From Escherichia coli (lineage in GTDB: Bacteria > Pseudomonadota > Gammaproteobacteria > Enterobacterales > Enterobacteriaceae), in assembly GCF_003018115.1 (NCBI RefSeq), contig NZ_CP027457.1: DNA of 64,000 bases. One strand, given 5' to 3'. The stretch's first letter is position 1. Each line of letters begins with the position of its first letter. The notes under the pieces are model-generated. The model was not told the DNA's origin. It saw only the letters and a program-made list of their open reading frames with translations, and did no database searches. A program made the position numbers and the translations under genes. Of this stretch, positions 1,889 through 61,671 are shown in pieces.

Positions 1889-2818
1889 TTAAAGCTCGAG
1901 CGCCGCTGCCATCGCTGAAGGTTCGTTCAGCGCCGAGGCGGTCAGGGTGTCGACAATGCGTTTCGTCAGGCCAGTAAGCACTTTGCCCGGGCCGACTTCA
2001 TAGAGATGTTCTACGCCTTGCGCTGCCATGTACTCAACAGACTTCGTCCACTGAACCGGGTTATACAACTGACGTACCAGTGCGTCACGAATGGCATCAC
2101 CATTGGTTTCGCATTTCACATCAACGTTATTCACAACAGGAACTGTTGGTGCGTTAAAGGTGATTTTCGCTAATTCTACTGCCAGTTTGTCGGCTGCTGG
2201 TTTCATCAGCGCACAGTGAGACGGTACGCTCACTGGTAACGGCAGAGCGCGTTTTGCGCCCGCAGCTTTACAGGCAGCGCCAGCACGCTCAACCGCTTCT
2301 TTATGACCGGCAATAACCACCTGTCCCGGAGAGTTAAAGTTTACCGGAGAAACGACCTGACCTTCTGCAGCTTCTTCACACGCTTTCGCAATAGACGCAT
2401 CATCCAGACCGATGATTGCCGCCATAGCGCCCGTACCTTCCGGTACGGCTTCTTGCATGAACTTGCCGCGCATCTCAACCAGACGCACCGCATCAGCGAA
2501 ATCAATCACACCAGCGCAAACCAGCGCGGAGTATTCCCCCAGGCTGTGACCGGCCATCAATGCCGGTGCTTTACCGCCCTGCTGCTGCCATACGCGGTAC
2601 AGCGCAACAGATGCAGTCAACAGCGCTGGCTGGGTTTGCCAGGTTTTATTCAGTTCTTCAGCTGGCCCCTGCTGGGTCAGCGCCCACAGGTCGTAGCCCA
2701 GCGCCGCAGAAGCTTCAGCAAACGTTTCTTCGACAATTGGATAGCTCGCCGCCATATCAGCCAGCATTCCAACGGTTTGAGAACCCTGTCCAGGGAACAC
2801 AAATGCAAATTGCGTCAT
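1889..2818 (-). CDS. fabD: malonyl-CoA:ACP transacylase
   Basis: 309-aa ORF MTQFAFVFPGQGSQTVGML... with GHSLGEY active-site motif. Confidence 0.95.
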   Translation of the reverse strand: MTQFAFVFPGQGSQTVGMLADMAASYPIVEETFAEASAALGYDLWALTQQGPAEELNKTWQTQPALLTASVALYRVWQQQGGKAPALMAGHSLGEYSALVCAGVIDFADAVRLVEMRGKFMQEAVPEGTGAMAAIIGLDDASIAKACEEAAEGQVVSPVNFNSPGQVVIAGHKEAVERAGAACKAAGAKRALPLPVSVPSHCALMKPAADKLAVELAKITFNAPTVPVVNNVDVKCETNGDAIRDALVRQLYNPVQWTKSVEYMAAQGVEHLYEVGPGKVLTGLTKRIVDTLTASALNEPSAMAAALEL

Positions 2819-2833
2819 GTTTTAATCCTTATC

Positions 2834-3787
2834 CTAGAAACGAACCAGCGCGGAGCCCCAAGTGAACCCACCGCCAAAGGCTTCAAGCAGAACCAACTGC
2901 CCCGGCTTAATGCGCCCGTCGCGTACAGCTTCATCCAGCGCGCACGGGACAGAGGCCGCAGAGGTATTACCGTGGCGATCCAGCGTCACCACGACATTGT
3001 CCATAGACATACCGAGTTTTTTCGCCGTTGCACTGATAATACGCAGGTTAGCCTGATGCGGAACCAGCCAGTCCAGTTGAGAACGGTCAAGATTATTCGC
3101 CGCCAGCGTCTCATCAACGATGTGCGCCAGTTCCGTTACCGCAACCTTGAAGACTTCGTTGCCCGCCATCGTCAGATGAATTGAATTCTCTGGATTCACG
3201 CGGTCGGCGTTTGGCAGCGTCAGCAATTCACCATAACTACCGTCGGCATGCAGATGGGTGGAGATGATTCCCGGCTCTTCAGAGGCAGCCAGCACCGCAG
3301 CGCCCGCACCATCGCCAAAAATAATAATAGTCCCACGATCTGTTGGATCGCAGGTGCGCGCCAGTACATCGGAACCGACGACCAGAGCATACTTCACCGC
3401 CCCAGATTTCACGTATTGATCGGCTACGCTTAATGCATAGGTGAAACCTGCGCAGGCTGCTGCAACGTCAAATGCCGGGCAACCTTTAATGCCCAACATG
3501 CTTTGAATCTGACAAGCTGCGCTCGGGAAAGCGTGCGTAGCAGAAGTCGTTGCCACAACGATCAGGCCAATCTGGTCTTTCTCAATGCCCGCCATCTCAA
3601 TTGCGCGTGTCGCCGCTTCAAAGCCCATGGTTGAAACGGTTTCGTTTGGCGCGGCAATGTGGCGTTCGCGGATACCGGTACGAGTGACAATCCACTCGTC
3701 AGAGGTGTCCACCATTTTTTCCAAATCGGCGTTTGTCCGCACTTGTTCGGGCAGATAGCTGCCAGTACCAATAATCTTCGTATACAT
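2834..3787 (-). CDS. fabH: 3-oxoacyl-ACP synthase III
   Basis: 317-aa [36 protein letters not shown]..., conserved position. Confidence 0.95.
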
Positions 3788-54892: not shown

Positions 54893-54980
54893 GGTGAGGT
54901 GTCCGAGTGGCTGAAGGAGCACGCCTGGAAAGTGTGTATACGGCAACGTATCGGGGGTTCGAATCCCCCCCTCACCGCCA
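54893..54980 (+). tRNA. serX: tRNA-Ser (anticodon GGA), serX-type
   Basis: 88-nt GGTGAGGTGTCCGAGTGGCTGAAGGAGCACGCCTGGAAAGTGTGTATACGGCAACGTATCGGGGGTTCGAATCCCCCCCTCACCGCCA; long variable arm, encoded CCA; adjacent to ghrA. Confidence 0.97.
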
Positions 54981-55129: not shown

Positions 55130-55971
55130 CTATACTGCCAGCATGTCAGGATAGTGTTTTGCGATAATATCATTCAGTCTGTCAACCAGTTCTGGTTTTC
55201 TGAACGTGATATGCGCGGAGCCCTTCTTAAAGTATCTGATGCTGAACATCTCATCTTCATAGTCCTCTTTTCCCTGAACAGATTGGATATGGTCATCCAG
55301 ATGAATGGTGATGTTTTCCCGGTTGTCGGGGATCGGTTTGCCGCTGAACAGGTGCAGCATTCTTTCCAGATCGGCAAGTCGATCGGCCTGTTGCCCGGTG
55401 ATAAGATGCCCCCCCACCGGTCCCACCTCACCAGATTGTTGACGATAATTTTACTGCCAAATTTGCAGGGTGAATTGGTTTTGTAATTCCAGCTCAGTCC
55501 CCTGAAAACGTTGATCACCCCTCGCTCAAACACTTCATCTTTGTTCTGGTGCAGTTGTTCAAACGTGCTCAGGATATTCGCTTCGCTGATTTCCGGAAAA
55601 TTATCGTACTCCAGTGACCGGTACCATGTATCACGGGCTTGTGCATCCATTAATGACAGCATCCCTGAACGTTGCATCAGGTCACGCCAGATTTCGCGGT
55701 CAAGGTTGTGGGTGATGGCTTTCATTGCGGTTTCCGGTTTCTCCATGAGCCAGCAGCCACAGCGAAAATCCTGTTTCATGGCCCAGTCCAGTGCGGTTTT
55801 ACCTCCGATGCTTTCCGCCAGCACCGAGATTTCTGCCAGTTGCCGGATAAGCGTGTCGATTTGCAGCAGTGTACTTTTTCGTACAGCCAGAATGTGGCGG
55901 ATACTGGTTGAGCAGATAACGTCCGTATGCCCGTTGACAACTTCCAGACGAGAGGCTGTGATATCAGACAT
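55130..55971 (-). pseudogene. uncharacterized island protein split by a -1 frameshift at a G7 tract (265-aa ORF 55174-55971 plus 98-aa ORF 55130-55426)
   Basis: Two overlapping same-strand ORFs switch frame at GGGGGGG (plus-strand C7, 55409-55415); an 8-G tract would give one ~330-aa protein; family not recognised. Confidence 0.6.
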
Positions 55972-55982
55972 AATCGATTATA

Positions 55983-57403
55983 TGAACGCATCCCGTTTGC
56001 AAAGGCATCCATTGTTCTGACATCGACGGTAGGTTGCAGCTTTATATCCGGCTTTATTGCAGCCCGGAAGCTGCGAGCCCCTATGTAATTCGCCGACTCA
56101 CGCCTCATTTCCTCAGCGGGCTTTAGGCCCAATCGATTATCCAGGTTTAGTGAGTCACGGTCTTACCTGTCTTTGTCATCACGCTGGCTGCCAGAGCAAC
56201 CTTTCTGCATTCACCCTTTTGTAAAGAGTTTATGTTTATCGGTATCAGCGATTAATCAGGCCTGATACTGACATGATTTTTGTCGTATTTACGTCCGTGA
56301 GCGGCTATTGCCCACACCGTTCGCGCCAGCTTGTTTGCCATTGCGACGATTGCCACGCTGGCCGGACGACGCTTTTTCAGTTCGGTTATCCATGGACCAG
56401 GTTCTTTGGTCAGTAATGCTGCCGCCCTTGCACCATGAATAAACAGGGTTCGCAGATATTTATCACCACGTTTGCTTATTCCCAGCAGGCGGATTTTTCC
56501 TCCTGAGCCTGTCTGTCTGGGCACCAGACCGATAAACGCGGCGAATTCCCGTCCCGACTTAAAGGCGGAGGCGTCTCCCATCGTGGCAACGGCAGCGGTG
56601 GCGATTAACGGCCCCACGCCTGGGATGTTCAGTAACCGCTGACAGGTTTCATTCTGTCTGGCTACCGCCTGCAACTGCTTCTCAATGTGGTCAAGATGTT
56701 CATCAAGTTCAGTAATTCGCTGATATTGTTCATCCAGCATGTTTATCAGGTAGAGCGGTAGCCGCTCCTTCAGACGCTCCAGGGCTTCCGGCACCTCCTT
56801 CGCCAAAGCAGCACGCCCCTTGTGCGTCGTTTCACCAAATTCCAGCAAGAGACCGTGAAGCGCGTTTATTTGTGCTGTCCTGAACTTCACCAGTTGCTGG
56901 CGCATTCGGTGTAACCCCAGCGTAGCCTGTTGCTCCTCGCTTTTAACGGCGACGGATTTTACCGGCTGCTGAACCGCCAGCCAGATGGCTCGGGCGTCCA
57001 TCACATCGTTTTTATTTCCCATCACGAATGCTTTGACGAACCGGCCTTTGAGTAATCTGACCTTATGTCCCAGTTTCTGAAGCTCACGCGCCCAGTGATG
57101 AGAACCCCCACAGGCCTCCATGCCGATAAGGCAGGGTTCACGGTTGCTGAAATATTCAAGGAATTTCTCACGCTTAACCTGCTTATCGATAATCTCTCCG
57201 GTATGTTCATCAACGAAATGCACCTGCATAAGATGTTTTGCAATATCAACCCCGACAGGGATATATTTCATGGTGTGGATCCTCCAGTCTGTTGGGAGCG
57301 AAACGCATCCCGTTGGGCACGATGATGCCGGAAATCTGCGGGGATCCACACTCATCTACTTAATCCCCGAGCGGCTCATTTCATAATGTTGGGATGCGTT
57401 CAT
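55983..57403 (-). mobile_element. IS110/IS1111-family insertion sequence (~1.42 kb)
   Basis: DEDD-type IS110-family transposase ORF bounded by a perfect 13-bp inverted repeat ATGAACGCATCCC (55983-55995) / GGGATGCGTTCAT (57391-57403); exact termini uncertain. Confidence 0.75.
56252..57271 (-). CDS. IS110-family transposase/recombinase
   Basis: ORF 56252-57355; start at MKYIPVGVDIAKHLMQVHFVDEHTGEI... typical IS110-family N-terminus, C-terminal LGISKRGDKYLRTLFIHGARAA region. Confidence 0.88.
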   Translation of the reverse strand: MKYIPVGVDIAKHLMQVHFVDEHTGEIIDKQVKREKFLEYFSNREPCLIGMEACGGSHHWARELQKLGHKVRLLKGRFVKAFVMGNKNDVMDARAIWLAVQQPVKSVAVKSEEQQATLGLHRMRQQLVKFRTAQINALHGLLLEFGETTHKGRAALAKEVPEALERLKERLPLYLINMLDEQYQRITELDEHLDHIEKQLQAVARQNETCQRLLNIPGVGPLIATAAVATMGDASAFKSGREFAAFIGLVPRQTGSGGKIRLLGISKRGDKYLRTLFIHGARAAALLTKEPGPWITELKKRRPASVAIVAMANKLARTVWAIAAHGRKYDKNHVSIRPD

Positions 57404-57484
57404 TACATTTCCTTTTTGCAGATAAATGAAAACGCCAGCCCTGTTCAGGCTGACGTCAGTGGAATAAAGTCTGGTGAGTGAGAT

Positions 57485-57693: not shown

Positions 57694-58182
57694 TTACCAG
57701 TCGAAAGTGGGTAAATCCGGCAGACATTCGGCGCTGGCATCCAGATGAATGAGACTGACGCCATAACGTCGGGTAAGTGTGACAACCAGACGGCGGAACG
57801 TTTTTGACAGCCCCAGGCGTTTAAGCCGCAGAACCGGGTATGACCACGCACCGGTACGTAACAGATATCCGCTACCTGTGAAATGAATCCATTCTGATTC
57901 GCCAGTGTCATTCGTCTGATGTGACAGCGAATACAACCAGGCGTTGTCCTTTGCCGTGATATGCGCGGTACTGCAGCGTATGCCGGTCAGGGCAGCAAAT
58001 GGTGGCGTGCGCTCTGCTGATGTCCGGTCAGATTCATCAACAACACGAAGGGAGTAGCCATTGTCGCAGGCCACGTTAATCAGTTCAGCGAGATTAACAC
58101 CATCGACGTCAACGACAATTCGTCCCATGTTCAGCGCCTGCACGTTAACGCTGTCTGCTTCCAGCGTCAGGGCCAGTTTCAT
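57694..58182 (-). CDS. conserved island protein downstream of CbtA (DUF5983-like)
   Basis: 162-aa ORF MKLALTLEADSVNVQALNMGRIVVDVDGVNLAELINVACDNGYSLRVVD...; start overlaps cbtA stop (ATGA). Confidence 0.65.
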   Translation of the reverse strand: MKLALTLEADSVNVQALNMGRIVVDVDGVNLAELINVACDNGYSLRVVDESDRTSAERTPPFAALTGIRCSTAHITAKDNAWLYSLSHQTNDTGESEWIHFTGSGYLLRTGAWSYPVLRLKRLGLSKTFRRLVVTLTRRYGVSLIHLDASAECLPDLPTFDW

Positions 58183-58556
58183 TGTTTCGCCCCCGGATGT
58201 TTACCCAGGGTAATGTTATTTACCGTTCTGTAATTGTCGCGGGTCATCAGGCCTGTCGCCCGGCGGGCCCGGAGGATATCGATGCTGTTTATTAACTGAG
58301 AGTGGGTACAGGTGCTGAATCCCGGCTGGTCGGTACGCACCAGTGCGTATTTTTCCACGAGAAAGTTCACCGCATCGCACAGTGAAATGCCGGCCTCAAT
58401 ATGCTGCTCAATCACACGTTCATCAGCGAACGGTGTGTCATTCAGCGTAAGGCCGTAGTGCTGGTCCAGTAGTCGGGAGAGCAGTGTCTGCCAGATGGTG
58501 ACGGGAGACGGGCTGCGCGATGCCTCCCGTACGTGTGTATCGGGTAATGTTTTCAT
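58179..58556 (-). CDS. cbtA: type IV toxin-antitoxin system toxin, CbtA/YeeV family (cytoskeleton-targeting)
   Basis: 125-aa ORF MKTLPDTHVREASRSPSPVTIWQTLLSRLLDQHYGLTLNDTPFADERVIEQHIEAGISLCDAVNFLVEKYALVRTD... near-identical to remembered YeeV/YkfI/YpjF sequences. Confidence 0.9.
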   Translation of the reverse strand: MKTLPDTHVREASRSPSPVTIWQTLLSRLLDQHYGLTLNDTPFADERVIEQHIEAGISLCDAVNFLVEKYALVRTDQPGFSTCTHSQLINSIDILRARRATGLMTRDNYRTVNNITLGKHPGAKQ

Positions 58557-58645
58557 ACTGAAGATTTTCCTGATATGAGAGATTAAATTTTGAGGAGAGT
58601 GGTGCTGTAGCGCACCGGGCCGGAGCAGACGATTATTTCGGTGGT

Positions 58646-59014
58646 TTACTTTTTCGTTTCTGGCGTCGGATAAACAGCCATATAAACGTAACCACAGCTG
58701 CCGAGGGTGTCGGCTTCGCAGGTCAGCCCTCTGGCATACAGCGTGACGGTATGCTGATGGCTGGGGCTGAGTTCACCGCTGGTGAGCATGAGTTCCAGTT
58801 GTTTCATCAGCAGCGGAAAGGCCTGGTCCAGATGGTACGCATCCGCGTCGCTGAACCGGCCTCTGATACCGGCGCGGTCTGCAAGGTAATGCAACCGGTT
58901 ACCCTCCTGCACCAGACGTGCCCCAAAACAGGGCGTCACGGTGCAGGGTAGCCCCCACCAGGGGCGGTCGTTGTTATCGTCGGGATGCGTTGTCCCGGGG
59001 AGAGTGTCTGACAC
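58646..59014 (-). CDS. cbeA: type IV toxin-antitoxin system antitoxin, CbeA/YeeU family
   Basis: 122-aa ORF MSDTLPGTTHPDDNNDRPWWGLPCTVTPCFGARLVQEGNRLHYLADRAGIRG... Confidence 0.9.
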   Translation of the reverse strand: MSDTLPGTTHPDDNNDRPWWGLPCTVTPCFGARLVQEGNRLHYLADRAGIRGRFSDADAYHLDQAFPLLMKQLELMLTSGELSPSHQHTVTLYARGLTCEADTLGSCGYVYMAVYPTPETKK

Positions 59015-59093: not shown

Positions 59094-59315
59094 TCAGTTC
59101 AGGGTGACGCTCATCAGCCGGACATACGGACCGAAACTGTCCTTACGGCGTTCTGCAAACACAGCCAGCACACCGGGAATATCCTGCACTTCACGGCCGG
59201 TATATGTATCCGTGCTACCGTGCCAGCGGTATTTACCGGTACAGAACGGAAAAAGACGGGATGCAGGATGCTGACGGTGAATACGCATGGCTTCACCACG
59301 GGGGATGATTTTCAT
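59094..59315 (-). CDS. DUF987 protein, YeeT-like
   Basis: 73-aa ORF MKIIPRGEAMRIHRQHPASRLFPFCTGKYRWHGSTDTYTGREVQDIPGVLAVFAERRKDSFGPYVRLMSVTLN. Confidence 0.85.
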   Translation of the reverse strand: MKIIPRGEAMRIHRQHPASRLFPFCTGKYRWHGSTDTYTGREVQDIPGVLAVFAERRKDSFGPYVRLMSVTLN

Positions 59316-59401: not shown

Positions 59402-59893
59402 TTAAAGCAGTCCGTGTTCCGCAAAGGAGAAAACCTGGCTGCCACCGACTATCAGATGGTCCGGCACCCGGATATCCACCAGAGCCAGTGCCTGTACCAG
59501 ACGTTCCGTGATAAGGCGGTCTGCCTTGCTGGGTGTGACTTCACCGGACGGGTGATTGTGCGCCAGCACCACGGCAGCGGCATTGTGATACAGGGCGCGT
59601 TTAATCACTTCCCGGGGATGGACTTCCGTGCGGTTGATGGTGCCGGTGAAGAGGGTTTCACCGGCAATCAGCTGATTCTGGTTGTTCAGATACAGCACCC
59701 GGAATTCTTCACGCTCCAGTCCCGCCATGTTAAGAATCAGCCATTCCCGTGCCGCACGGGTGGAGGTGAAGGCCACGCCGGGTTCATGAAGATGGCGGTC
59801 CAGGGTTTTCAGGGCCCGCAGAATGAGACTGCGCTCGCCGGGCGTCATCTCTCCGGGCAGAAAGGAAAGCTGCTGCATTGTTCCTGCCTCCAT
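59402..59893 (-). CDS. RadC-like JAB-domain protein (YeeS/YfjY/YkfG family)
   Basis: 163-aa ORF with JAMM-like motif AVVLAHNHPSGEVTPSKAD; start may be internal Met (MQQLSFLPGEM). Confidence 0.85.
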   Translation of the reverse strand: MEAGTMQQLSFLPGEMTPGERSLILRALKTLDRHLHEPGVAFTSTRAAREWLILNMAGLEREEFRVLYLNNQNQLIAGETLFTGTINRTEVHPREVIKRALYHNAAAVVLAHNHPSGEVTPSKADRLITERLVQALALVDIRVPDHLIVGGSQVFSFAEHGLL

Positions 59894-60379
59894 TCAGTCG
59901 ATGATGCGCATAATGGCGCTGCATTCCGGATGCTGCAGGGCGTAATCCCGCAGCCGGTAATAATGGACCGTCATGGCATAACACTCCGTACGACAGGCAT
60001 GATGACTGTACGTCATCAGACAGGCAGCAATGCCGGCGGCTTCCGGACTCATTTCAGCGCGGTTACCGTTCATGGCATTGAACAGTACCCATTTTTCGTC
60101 ATCATCGTCATCCGGTTCAGGTGCCATAAATGCCCCGCCGTTGTTCAGGGTGTACAGATTCCAGATACCACCGCAGTAGTCTTCGCACAGACGGTCCATC
60201 CAGCCGAAAACACGGGGCTCCAGGGTCACCCACTGTGGAATGAGGCCAAAATGCTGCGGCCAGAAGCTGATGCGCTGTTCATCAGGGACTATGGTGGCAA
60301 CCAGCTGAGGCTGGTCATTCCCTGATGCAGCGGTTACGGAAACAGAAGGAGTGGTGGAATTATGCAAGACGGTTGTCAT
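59894..60379 (-). CDS. antirestriction protein (KlcA/ArdB-like; YfjX/YafX family)
   Basis: 161-aa ORF with acidic patch PEPDDDDDEKW; immediately upstream of RadC-like gene as in CP4 prophage remnants. Confidence 0.8.
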   Translation of the reverse strand: MTTVLHNSTTPSVSVTAASGNDQPQLVATIVPDEQRISFWPQHFGLIPQWVTLEPRVFGWMDRLCEDYCGGIWNLYTLNNGGAFMAPEPDDDDDEKWVLFNAMNGNRAEMSPEAAGIAACLMTYSHHACRTECYAMTVHYYRLRDYALQHPECSAIMRIID

Positions 60380-60470: not shown

Positions 60471-61289
60471 TCAGCACATGCTCTCCAGCAGCGTTTCAGC
60501 CATCACCCACAATGCGCGGTTGAGCTTAATATCGGTGTCGATGCTGTGAATGGCCCGGGTATGGATACGTTTTCCTCTGGCACTGCGACCGGAAATCCCG
60601 CCTTTCAGCATATTCTCCTGGATGGTCTGATAAGCACTCCACAGGTCCTTACCGTAATCCTCCCGGCGTCGTGGCGTCAGAATGTCGGCGGTGGTGACGG
60701 GCTGATGTTCGTCACCATAACGGTAAGTCAGTGCCGCCTGTGCCAGCGCCTGGCGTGCCGGTGGCGGCAGAATCAGCGACTGCATGGCATCACGTTTCTC
60801 TTCAATCCGGTCAAAAACCCCCACCACCTCGTAAGCACCTTCAATCACCCTGTCCACCACGTTTCCCCGGTGTGGCACCCGGACTTCTCCCAGCGACTGA
60901 CCGCAGACCAGGCCATTGGTGCAGATGGCACGAAAATATCCGGGTAACATCTGGTAGCTGGATGAACCGTCATGGGAGTTGAGCAGAATAATTTCAGGCA
61001 CATGCTGACCGGTTATCTGTCCGGCCCGCCGCAGACGCAGCATATGTTTGGTATATTCCCGGCGGCTCTGGTCGCGCACACGGGTCTGGCAGGCGAAGAA
61101 CGGCTGAAAGCCTTCCCGCTGCAGATTTTCCAGGACGGTGATGGTGGGAATGTACGCATACCGTTCACTGCGGGAGGTGTGCCGGTCTTCTCCAAAAATA
61201 CTCGGGACGTGGTACATCAGTTCTTCGCGTGTCAGTGGGCGCTCCCGACGGATCTGATTTACATGACCAAAACGACTGGCTAATTGCAT
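60471..61289 (-). CDS. DUF932-family protein (YafZ/YfjQ-like)
   Basis: 272-aa ORF MQLASRFGHVNQIRRERPLTREELMYHVPSIFGEDRHTSRSERYAYIPTITVLENLQREGFQPFFACQ...; family name from memory. Confidence 0.7.
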   Translation of the reverse strand: MQLASRFGHVNQIRRERPLTREELMYHVPSIFGEDRHTSRSERYAYIPTITVLENLQREGFQPFFACQTRVRDQSRREYTKHMLRLRRAGQITGQHVPEIILLNSHDGSSSYQMLPGYFRAICTNGLVCGQSLGEVRVPHRGNVVDRVIEGAYEVVGVFDRIEEKRDAMQSLILPPPARQALAQAALTYRYGDEHQPVTTADILTPRRREDYGKDLWSAYQTIQENMLKGGISGRSARGKRIHTRAIHSIDTDIKLNRALWVMAETLLESMC

Positions 61290-61329
61290 ACTTTGCTCCT
61301 TATGAATGAGTTAGCGGTATAAACGAAAA

Positions 61330-61357
61330 GGCCGCGTCTCCCGGAGAAGACGCGGCC
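61330..61357 (-). terminator. rho-independent terminator downstream of the DUF905-like gene
   Basis: Perfect 10-bp stem GGCCGCGTCT/AGACGCGGCC; minus strand then reads TTTTCGTTT. Confidence 0.65.
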
Positions 61358-61378
61358 TGATGGATGAAATGAAGACGT

Positions 61379-61671
61379 TTATTGCCTGAGAATTCCCTCA
61401 CTGGCGAGATACGGATTTAGCTGTTTTCCGGCATCAGATTCAAAATTCCAGCACCGCCAGCGCAACTGACCTTCAGCGTTGCGGATCACCAGACGAAAAT
61501 GCGTACCCGGGTCATCCTTGATAAACACATTGCGGTAAGCGGTTATGACAGCAACCGCCTGCCCGTATGAGAAAGATCCTTCAGCCAGGACATACTCTGT
61601 GTGTAACCCGGCATATCTGGTTTCTCCTGATAAATAGCCTCTGCCACAACGTATGGCAGAGGCTGAAGCAT
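61379..61671 (-). pseudogene. DUF905/YkfF-like small gene with apparent frameshift
   Basis: Frame A from ATG ([42 protein letters not shown]) shifts to frame B (...[60 protein letters not shown]), which carries the remembered HFRLVxR...WRxWNFExDAG signature. Confidence 0.55.

Follow-up and report, generated by a model that had tools for sequence, protein, structure and literature searches.

The question raised by this locus is whether a type IV toxin–antitoxin (TA) pair has a third protein of its own. The locus lies within a 64,000-nucleotide (nt) stretch of Escherichia coli DNA (contig NZ_CP027457.1 of RefSeq assembly GCF_003018115.1), referred to here as the window, and consists of the antitoxin gene cbeA (yeeU), the toxin gene cbtA (yeeV) and, downstream, a full-length yeeW, an open reading frame (ORF) of 162 amino acids (aa) whose product belongs to the DUF5983 family. 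A preliminary description of this DNA had assigned the first two genes to the CbeA and CbtA families, had placed the stop codon of cbtA over the start codon of yeeW in an ATGA arrangement, and had suggested that the co-translated third protein could modulate toxicity. The assignments are borne out by the Pfam matches (Table 1), and the gene order, coordinates, 89-nt spacer, 162-aa ORF and overlap at 58182..58179 all proved exact on the minus strand. The notion of a specific third TA component fared less well; the C-terminal domain of DUF5983 occurs without CbtA/CbeA on hundreds of plasmids and also in integrative and conjugative elements (ICEs) and in phages, and the K-12 pairs work without a full-length YeeW. 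The best reading of the locus, considered probable though far from secure, is that one mRNA runs from the DUF932 gene to the DUF957 gene and carries an ATGA-coupled yeeW, and that YeeW is an establishment or accessory protein rather than a dedicated part of the TA pair.

The junction reads GCG AAA CAA TGA in the cbtA frame and ATG AAA CTG in the yeeW frame, and it is the sole overlapping junction in this operon of the window; the other gaps, in the order of transcription, are 91, 15, 86, 79, 89 and 11 nt. A 4-nt overlap is by itself a common feature, being the commonest class of overlap in bacterial operons. ATGA was found in 23/23 loci where the 5' end of DUF5983 is intact, down to around 64% protein identity; these were 21 fetched loci, the window and the copy from the window's source genome (L001), and covered E. 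coli paralogues of 83-100% identity, E. albertii, Citrobacter, Yokenella, Trabulsiella and IMG/VR contigs. Therefore the overlap is not absent from most homologous loci, an outcome that the preliminary description had named as one that would count against it. By RefSeq coordinates ATGA is also present in four further E. coli loci (L031-34), and it was seen in L020-23, on a Klebsiella IncFIB/HI1B plasmid carrying the whole block (L042) and, as the same 4-nt overlap of cbtA and yeeW, in K-12. In the distant L020 lineage the DUF5983 protein has 111 aa, 53% identity and no remaining N-terminal domain, and its gene still overlaps cbtA by 4 nt. The sequence around the junction takes two forms, CAATGA/CGATGA and AAATGATGA, with ATGA retained in both. 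Conservation of the junction on this scale exceeds chance.

A Shine-Dalgarno (SD)-like motif lies 7-8 nt upstream of the yeeW ATG, inside cbtA; it is GGAGG in most loci and GGGGG in the window. The predicted RNA fold at the yeeW start is modest (z = -2.3), with the AUG in a loop and the SD partly in stems of 4-6 bp. Obligatory coupling through an RNA structure that masks the yeeW start was considered and rejected, the predicted fold being too weak for such a claim.

That the 162-aa ORF is a real gene follows from its purifying selection, with ratios of non-synonymous to synonymous substitution (dN/dS) of 0.09-0.25 against 12 orthologues and paralogues and constraint on both domains. Both of its DUF5983 Pfam matches exceed the gathering scores, and its N-terminal domain (DUF5983_N) is 71% identical to the 64-aa YeeW of K-12. 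A search for DUF5983 homologues returned 1,095, mostly of 162-163 aa under the name ‘DUF5983 family protein’ or ‘Aec77’; the family is narrow, with 213 representatives, many of them fragments, among 1.8 billion proteins (50% clustering, E <= 1e-3). The invariant residues of the C-terminal domain are H74, D79, G105, S126 and, as the last residue, W162; AlphaFold2 (AF2) models this domain with a predicted local distance difference test score (pLDDT) above 90, the N-terminal domain being of low confidence. Foldseek against the PDB, together with sequence and profile searches of the PDB, returned nothing for DUF5983, and a Glyoxalase/VOC fold, claimed for DUF5983 in a preprint (10.1101/2024.01.30.577995), was set aside for want of significant structural similarity to VOC-fold proteins. 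An AF2 model of a CbtA-(GGGGS)5-DUF5983 fusion, built with 13 paired rows, had a predicted template modelling score (pTM) of 0.40 with no gain in confidence, and pLDDT was under 50 for the N-terminal domain and for the C-terminal half of CbtA. The model thus lends no support to a CbtA–DUF5983 complex, though as a test made without the predicted aligned error (PAE) it is weak. At several loci DUF5983 and DUF957 are intact beside a damaged toxin gene, either a frameshifted cbtA (L009, Trabulsiella; 2593-3492) or a 3' remnant of 28-44 aa (L002, 1047-1824; L006, 2870-3695). L002 and L006 are contigs of metagenome-assembled genomes labelled Collinsella, of clearly E. coli-like DNA.

DUF5983 is also met well away from TA loci. 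By tblastn the C-terminal domain was found on 278 PLSDB plasmids, at below 60% identity on 246 of them; the main hosts of these plasmids are Serratia, Enterobacter, Klebsiella and Citrobacter, and 128 are conjugative and 113 mobilizable. On a Serratia plasmid the order is parB–psiB–psiA–higBA–…–DUF932–DUF5983, followed by mobC and mobA–traI; on a Klebsiella IncFII plasmid it is higBA…DUF932–DUF5983, then a lytic transglycosylase (SLT) gene; and on an Enterobacter plasmid it is hok…N6-methylase…DUF5983 (188 aa), then mobA–relaxase. A 290-kb plasmid (L016) has its copy near DUF932 and repA, and L038 likewise shows a plasmid-type context lacking CbtA. One ICE copy lies between ArdC/DUF1281 and UvrD/TraI, and phage homologues are present in Erwinia phage pEp_SNUABM_08 and Colwellia phage 9A, with a match to PHROG 5003. 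CbtA or CbeA accompanies DUF5983 in none of these plasmid, ICE and phage contexts. C-domain-only DUF5983 genes (103-109 aa) whose start overlaps an unrelated upstream gene by ATGA were recorded in L017 (3663-4330), L018 and L035-L037 (3066-4312); the upstream partners are DUF3085 (113 aa) and, in an ICE of ArdC/TraI type, DUF1281 (312 aa), which with CbtA makes three partner families. By BLASTP, DUF3085 has no homology to CbtA, to the DUF5983 N-terminal domain or to the N-terminal extension of the plasmid proteins.

On the plasmids, DUF5983 appears to close the leading region on the side nearest to oriT. ‘Uncharacterized; DUF5983’ is family #72 among the 100 largest families enriched in leading regions (Samuel & Burstein 2024, Nature, PMC11541004, Suppl. 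file 3), with a false discovery rate p = 6.6e-199, 618 members, a median position of 2 from oriT and location on the T-strand. The three plasmid contexts given above for Serratia, Klebsiella and Enterobacter agree with this published enrichment near oriT. The same list contains DUF905/YkfF (#2), YubP/YafZ, which is PF06067 (#3), and KlcA (#9) (PMC11541004), all of which have homologues in the operon of the window or just before its first gene; a large part of the island operon has therefore been assembled from such families. Among the island genes from DUF905 to DUF5983 (60471-61588 and onward), those for DUF905, DUF932, KlcA-type antirestriction and DUF5983 belong to them, and the end of the island resembles a fossil leading region. 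Klebsiella IncFIB/HI1B plasmids also carry the DUF905…DUF957 block in full.

In the mechanism proposed, a polycistronic mRNA would span DUF932 to DUF957, between the hairpins at 61358..61329 and 57457..57431, and yeeW would be translated at the ATGA by termination-reinitiation or by unmasking of its SD. Ribosomes finishing cbtA would re-initiate on yeeW, or expose its start, so YeeW output would track cbtA translation. YeeW would travel with the TA pair, its C-terminal domain being a putative mobile-element accessory protein, and would most likely serve the establishment of the element in a new host, as a factor of anti-defence or host-manipulation type. It is the position in plasmid leading regions, together with the shared families, that makes an establishment protein the most likely role; and since the family is typical of the region of plasmids that enters first, YeeW is probably not a dedicated TA component.

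Several points weigh against this assignment of YeeW to element establishment. The coupling to cbtA is strictly kept over about 35% protein divergence, as a stoichiometric partner would show, and persists even in the L020 lineage that lacks the N-terminal domain. That domain (PF25638) was detected only in cbtA-linked versions and could give YeeW a local link to the TA pair. That C-domain genes are also ATGA-coupled to DUF3085 and DUF1281, two unrelated genes, is a hint that the domain may regularly act together with the product of the gene before it. Further, oriT positions on the plasmids were deduced from mob and relaxase genes rather than annotated, the 9 kb of island sequence in the window yielded neither a relaxase nor an oriT, and transferability of this island is not demonstrated. 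To our knowledge no function has been demonstrated for any member of the DUF5983 family.

These points bear most directly on the alternative that YeeW is a true third component of CbtA/CbeA, made in a fixed ratio and binding or modulating the toxin (as a second antitoxin, a stabiliser or a sensor of a trigger), with K-12 holding a degenerate two-gene version. The conservation of ATGA across all cbtA-linked loci and the confinement of the N-terminal domain to them would both be expected of such a component, and in the type IV model of Masuda, from 2012, CbeA is said not to bind CbtA, which would leave room for a direct binder. Further, in E. coli DUF5983 invariably lies downstream of CbtA (PMC10790755), and YafW blocks YkfI only partly on co-expression (PMC5371832). 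The alternative is nevertheless unlikely, in view of the C-terminal domain being common on plasmids, ICEs and phages that lack CbtA, of three K-12 pairs that function without full-length YeeW, of the intact DUF5983 genes beside broken cbtA and, as a weak test, of the fusion model. A broader version is rather unlikely: natural CbtA/CbeA would be a system of three or four genes in which YeeW, perhaps with DUF957, senses or gates CbtA, for example by releasing toxin on entry or exit of the element; what was studied in K-12 would then be crippled, and its recurrent ATGA coupling to CbtA, DUF3085 and DUF1281 would mark the C-terminal domain as a general ‘partner module’ for small mobile-element effectors. 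The strict junction, the cbtA-restricted N-terminal domain and the coupling to DUF3085 and DUF1281 do keep alive the simpler model of a partner for the upstream protein, which seems unlikely or somewhat less than that.

It might be supposed instead that YeeW is a DNA-binding regulator of the operon, supplying an autoregulation that the type IV pair does not provide. In favour of this, these operons are autoregulated neither by the toxin nor by the antitoxin (PMC5371832), and the leading-region family bears the label ‘DUF5983; transcriptional regulator’, with 137/618 members matching ‘CadC family transcriptional regulator’ by DIAMOND (PMC11541004). A regulator is, however, highly improbable: no helix-turn-helix or winged helix-turn-helix Pfam family matches YeeW, expression and regulation of the operon in K-12 proceed in its absence, and the invariant H74, D79, S126 and W162 would seem unlike a DNA-reading helix. 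Finally, the overlap may be functionless, with yeeW starting from its own SD and ATGA inherited from one ancestral compact junction. This would be in keeping with the well-placed GGAGG of most loci, with the frequency of 4-nt overlaps in general and with the plasmid versions, which trail DUF932 by 46-82 nt with no overlap; moreover, all loci with both domains are related by descent, so the count of 23/23 is one of copies and not of independent events. A functionless overlap is nonetheless quite improbable, as the junction has outlasted synonymous turnover (synonymous divergence, dS, up to ~2.4 against Citrobacter and Yokenella), ATGA is kept in both sequence variants, the junctions with DUF3085 and DUF1281 are independent, and the SD of the window, reduced to the weaker GGGGG, is in part enclosed in predicted stems.

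Table 1. Features of the operon and its surroundings in the window
Feature	Coordinates	Strand	Basis
tRNA-Ser(GGA) (serX), next to ghrA, island boundary	54893..54980	+	RefSeq map
DUF4942 gene, frameshifted	55130-55971	-	RefSeq
IS110-family transposase gene	56252-57271	-	RefSeq
Terminator-like hairpin and T-run, directly 3' of DUF957	57431..57457	-	11-pair stem, 6 GC pairs, tail TTCATTTATC
DUF957, small very acidic protein, 65 aa	57485..57682	-	RefSeq WP_000839242.1; own ATG, AGGA SD
Full-length yeeW, DUF5983 family protein, 162 aa	57694..58182	-	PF25638 + PF19419; RefSeq WP_041124065.1
DUF5983 C-terminal domain, residues 69-162	57697..57978	-	PF19419 E=3.3e-22
DUF5983_N domain, residues 4-57	58012..58173	-	PF25638 E=3.8e-31
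ATGA junction, cbtA TGA stop / DUF5983 ATG start	58179..58182	-	sequence
cbtA/yeeV, cytoskeleton-binding toxin, 125 aa	58179..58556	-	PF06755 E=6.3e-61, full profile, positions 1-112
cbeA-cbtA spacer, 89 nt	58557..58645	-	read from sequence
cbeA/yeeU, antitoxin, 122 aa	58646..59014	-	PF06154 E=1.3e-53; RefSeq: ‘type IV toxin-antitoxin system YeeU family antitoxin’
DUF987 (yeeT-like), upstream in same operon	59094..59315	-	PF06174 E=3.2e-38
RadC-like JAB protein (yeeS-like)	59402..59878	-	PF04002 E=6e-45; start per RefSeq
Antirestriction protein, KlcA/ArdB-type	59894..60379	-	PF03230
DUF932 protein (YfjQ/YafZ/YubP-like), probable first operon gene	60471..61289	-	PF06067 E=3.4e-49
Terminator-like hairpin just upstream of DUF932	61329..61358	-	sequence

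The operon order is DUF932 – antirestriction – RadC – DUF987 – cbeA – cbtA – yeeW(DUF5983) – DUF957, and the hairpin after DUF957 probably marks its end. As a whole it represents the canonical distal operon of an integrative island of CP4-44 type, which here adjoins tRNA-Ser(GGA) serX beside ghrA on the RefSeq map. Before DUF932 the island has genes for a GTPase, Ag43, a hypothetical protein, IrmA and DUF905; past DUF957 come the IS110 transposase, the frameshifted DUF4942 gene and then the tRNA. The IS110 transposase gene is inserted between DUF957 and DUF4942 in the window; in intact islands DUF4942 stands ~85 nt past DUF957, directly beside tRNA-Ser. The serX insertion site is also occupied in E2348/69 and 2023CK-01687. 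None of the eight operon proteins was matched by PADLOC, which gives no indication of membership in a defence system, and RadC was the sole NCBIfam match. In K-12 (2775919-2776868; L014) yfjX/yfjY are now annotated lfgA/lfgB (‘CP4-57 prophage protease’), which gives the RadC-like gene of these operons an assigned activity in that strain.

A 2-kb region of the locus is 100% identical to E. coli 2014C-4135 (NZ_CP027310.1), where RefSeq annotates identical genes. Related copies, mostly 80-95% identical, are present in 4,981/5,426 complete E. coli genomes (median number per genome, 3) and are uniformly annotated as DUF987, YeeU antitoxin, CbtA toxin, DUF5983 and DUF957; the cbtA and DUF5983 genes are nearly whole as a pair in 3,688 genomes.

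The DUF957 gene that closes the operon starts with its own ATG 11 nt past the yeeW stop, preceded by an AGGA SD, and its sequence includes IIFDNDEDKTDS; an 80-aa ORF in the list of ORFs is a mere upstream extension of it. No Pfam-A model was found for DUF957. It is probably the ‘ANF00264’ AntiFam entry which a preprint (10.64898/2026.06.09.728211) suggests is fused to DUF5983 by programmed frameshift. At the loci compared here such a frameshift was rejected: in 17/17 DUF957 is a separate ORF that begins with its own ATG, at a distance of 11, 16, 19 or 29 nt from the yeeW stop. Since this distance varies modulo 3, a conserved frameshift is implausible at these loci.

The TA pair itself is close to that of K-12. 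In K-12 work CbtA blocks the assembly of FtsZ and MreB, and CbeA counteracts it. The window has a PF06755 toxin with a PF06154 antitoxin directly upstream on the same strand, as in the CbtA/CbeA type IV family, and CbtA is 89% and CbeA 90% identical to the K-12 proteins; from this identity the pair would be expected to inhibit FtsZ and MreB, with the antitoxin acting on those targets. Residue F65, needed in K-12 CbtA for interaction with FtsZ (PMC5624674), is kept. At residue 15 (58512-58514) the R15 of K-12 is replaced by S15 in the window, and the residue before it is R; R15C abolishes MreB binding by K-12 CbtA (PMC5624674), R15 is not conserved in YpjF or YkfI, and many CbtA paralogues have R14-C15. 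As far as can be judged from sequence, MreB-targeting by natural CbtA variants at residue 15 is uncertain. The antitoxin–toxin spacer is 88 nt in K-12, 46-89 nt in other paralogues and 51 nt in Citrobacter. In the distant locus L020 (2436-3628) an extra 71-aa ORF separates cbeA from cbtA, and DUF987 is replaced by a protein of 157 aa that weakly matches Ivy (lysozyme inhibitor).

Both the pairing of CbtA with DUF5983 and the enrichment of DUF5983 in leading regions are already published, and the observation itself adds nothing new. Its interest lies in the fact that functional work on CbtA/CbeA has all been done in K-12, where yeeW is a stub, while in most E. coli the gene is intact, under selection and co-translated. 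Should YeeW act on the toxin, the type IV model would have to be revised; if instead it is an establishment or anti-defence factor, it would be one more uncharacterised leading-region family, and one that is easily testable.

The cbeA–cbtA–yeeW arrangement is already known from the K-12 annotation and from thousands of RefSeq genomes, and the association of CbtA with DUF5983 has been reported (PMC10790755). Comparison with the K-12 loci had been proposed in the preliminary description. CP4-44 cbeA(yeeU)–cbtA(yeeV)–yeeW shares the gene order, strand logic and 4-nt cbtA/yeeW overlap of the window, with a spacer of 88 rather than 89 nt; however, its yeeW is a 64-aa stub consisting of the N-terminal domain only, and the island ends soon past it, whereas the window continues with DUF957 and an IS110-interrupted DUF4942 pseudogene. 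YkfI/YafW (CP4-6) and YpjF/YfjZ (CP4-57) have homologous toxins and antitoxins and the same upstream antirestriction, RadC-like and DUF987 genes, but their spacer is 20 nt, their toxins are shorter (109-113 aa), and neither DUF5983 nor DUF957 lies downstream. All three K-12 pairs, CbtA/CbeA, YpjF/YfjZ and YkfI/YafW, are toxic and neutralised by their antitoxins (PMC5371832, PMC5624674); yeeW is unmentioned in these two studies. The leading-region DUF5983 of plasmids (family #72, PMC11541004) has the same Pfam C-terminal domain and likewise stands beside DUF932, in unidirectional operons with antirestriction, TA and methylase genes. It differs in its length of 100-190 aa, in lacking DUF5983_N, in having no CbtA before it, in being separated by a gap of 46-82 nt rather than overlapping, and in its identity of only 29-43% to the protein of the window. 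Three-gene TA systems, such as PaaR2–PaaA2–ParE2 and the toxin-antitoxin-chaperone (TAC) systems with a SecB-like chaperone, have a third protein that regulates or chaperones the antitoxin; as here, the third gene is co-transcribed with toxin and antitoxin, but DUF5983, unlike those third proteins, exists independently outside TA loci.

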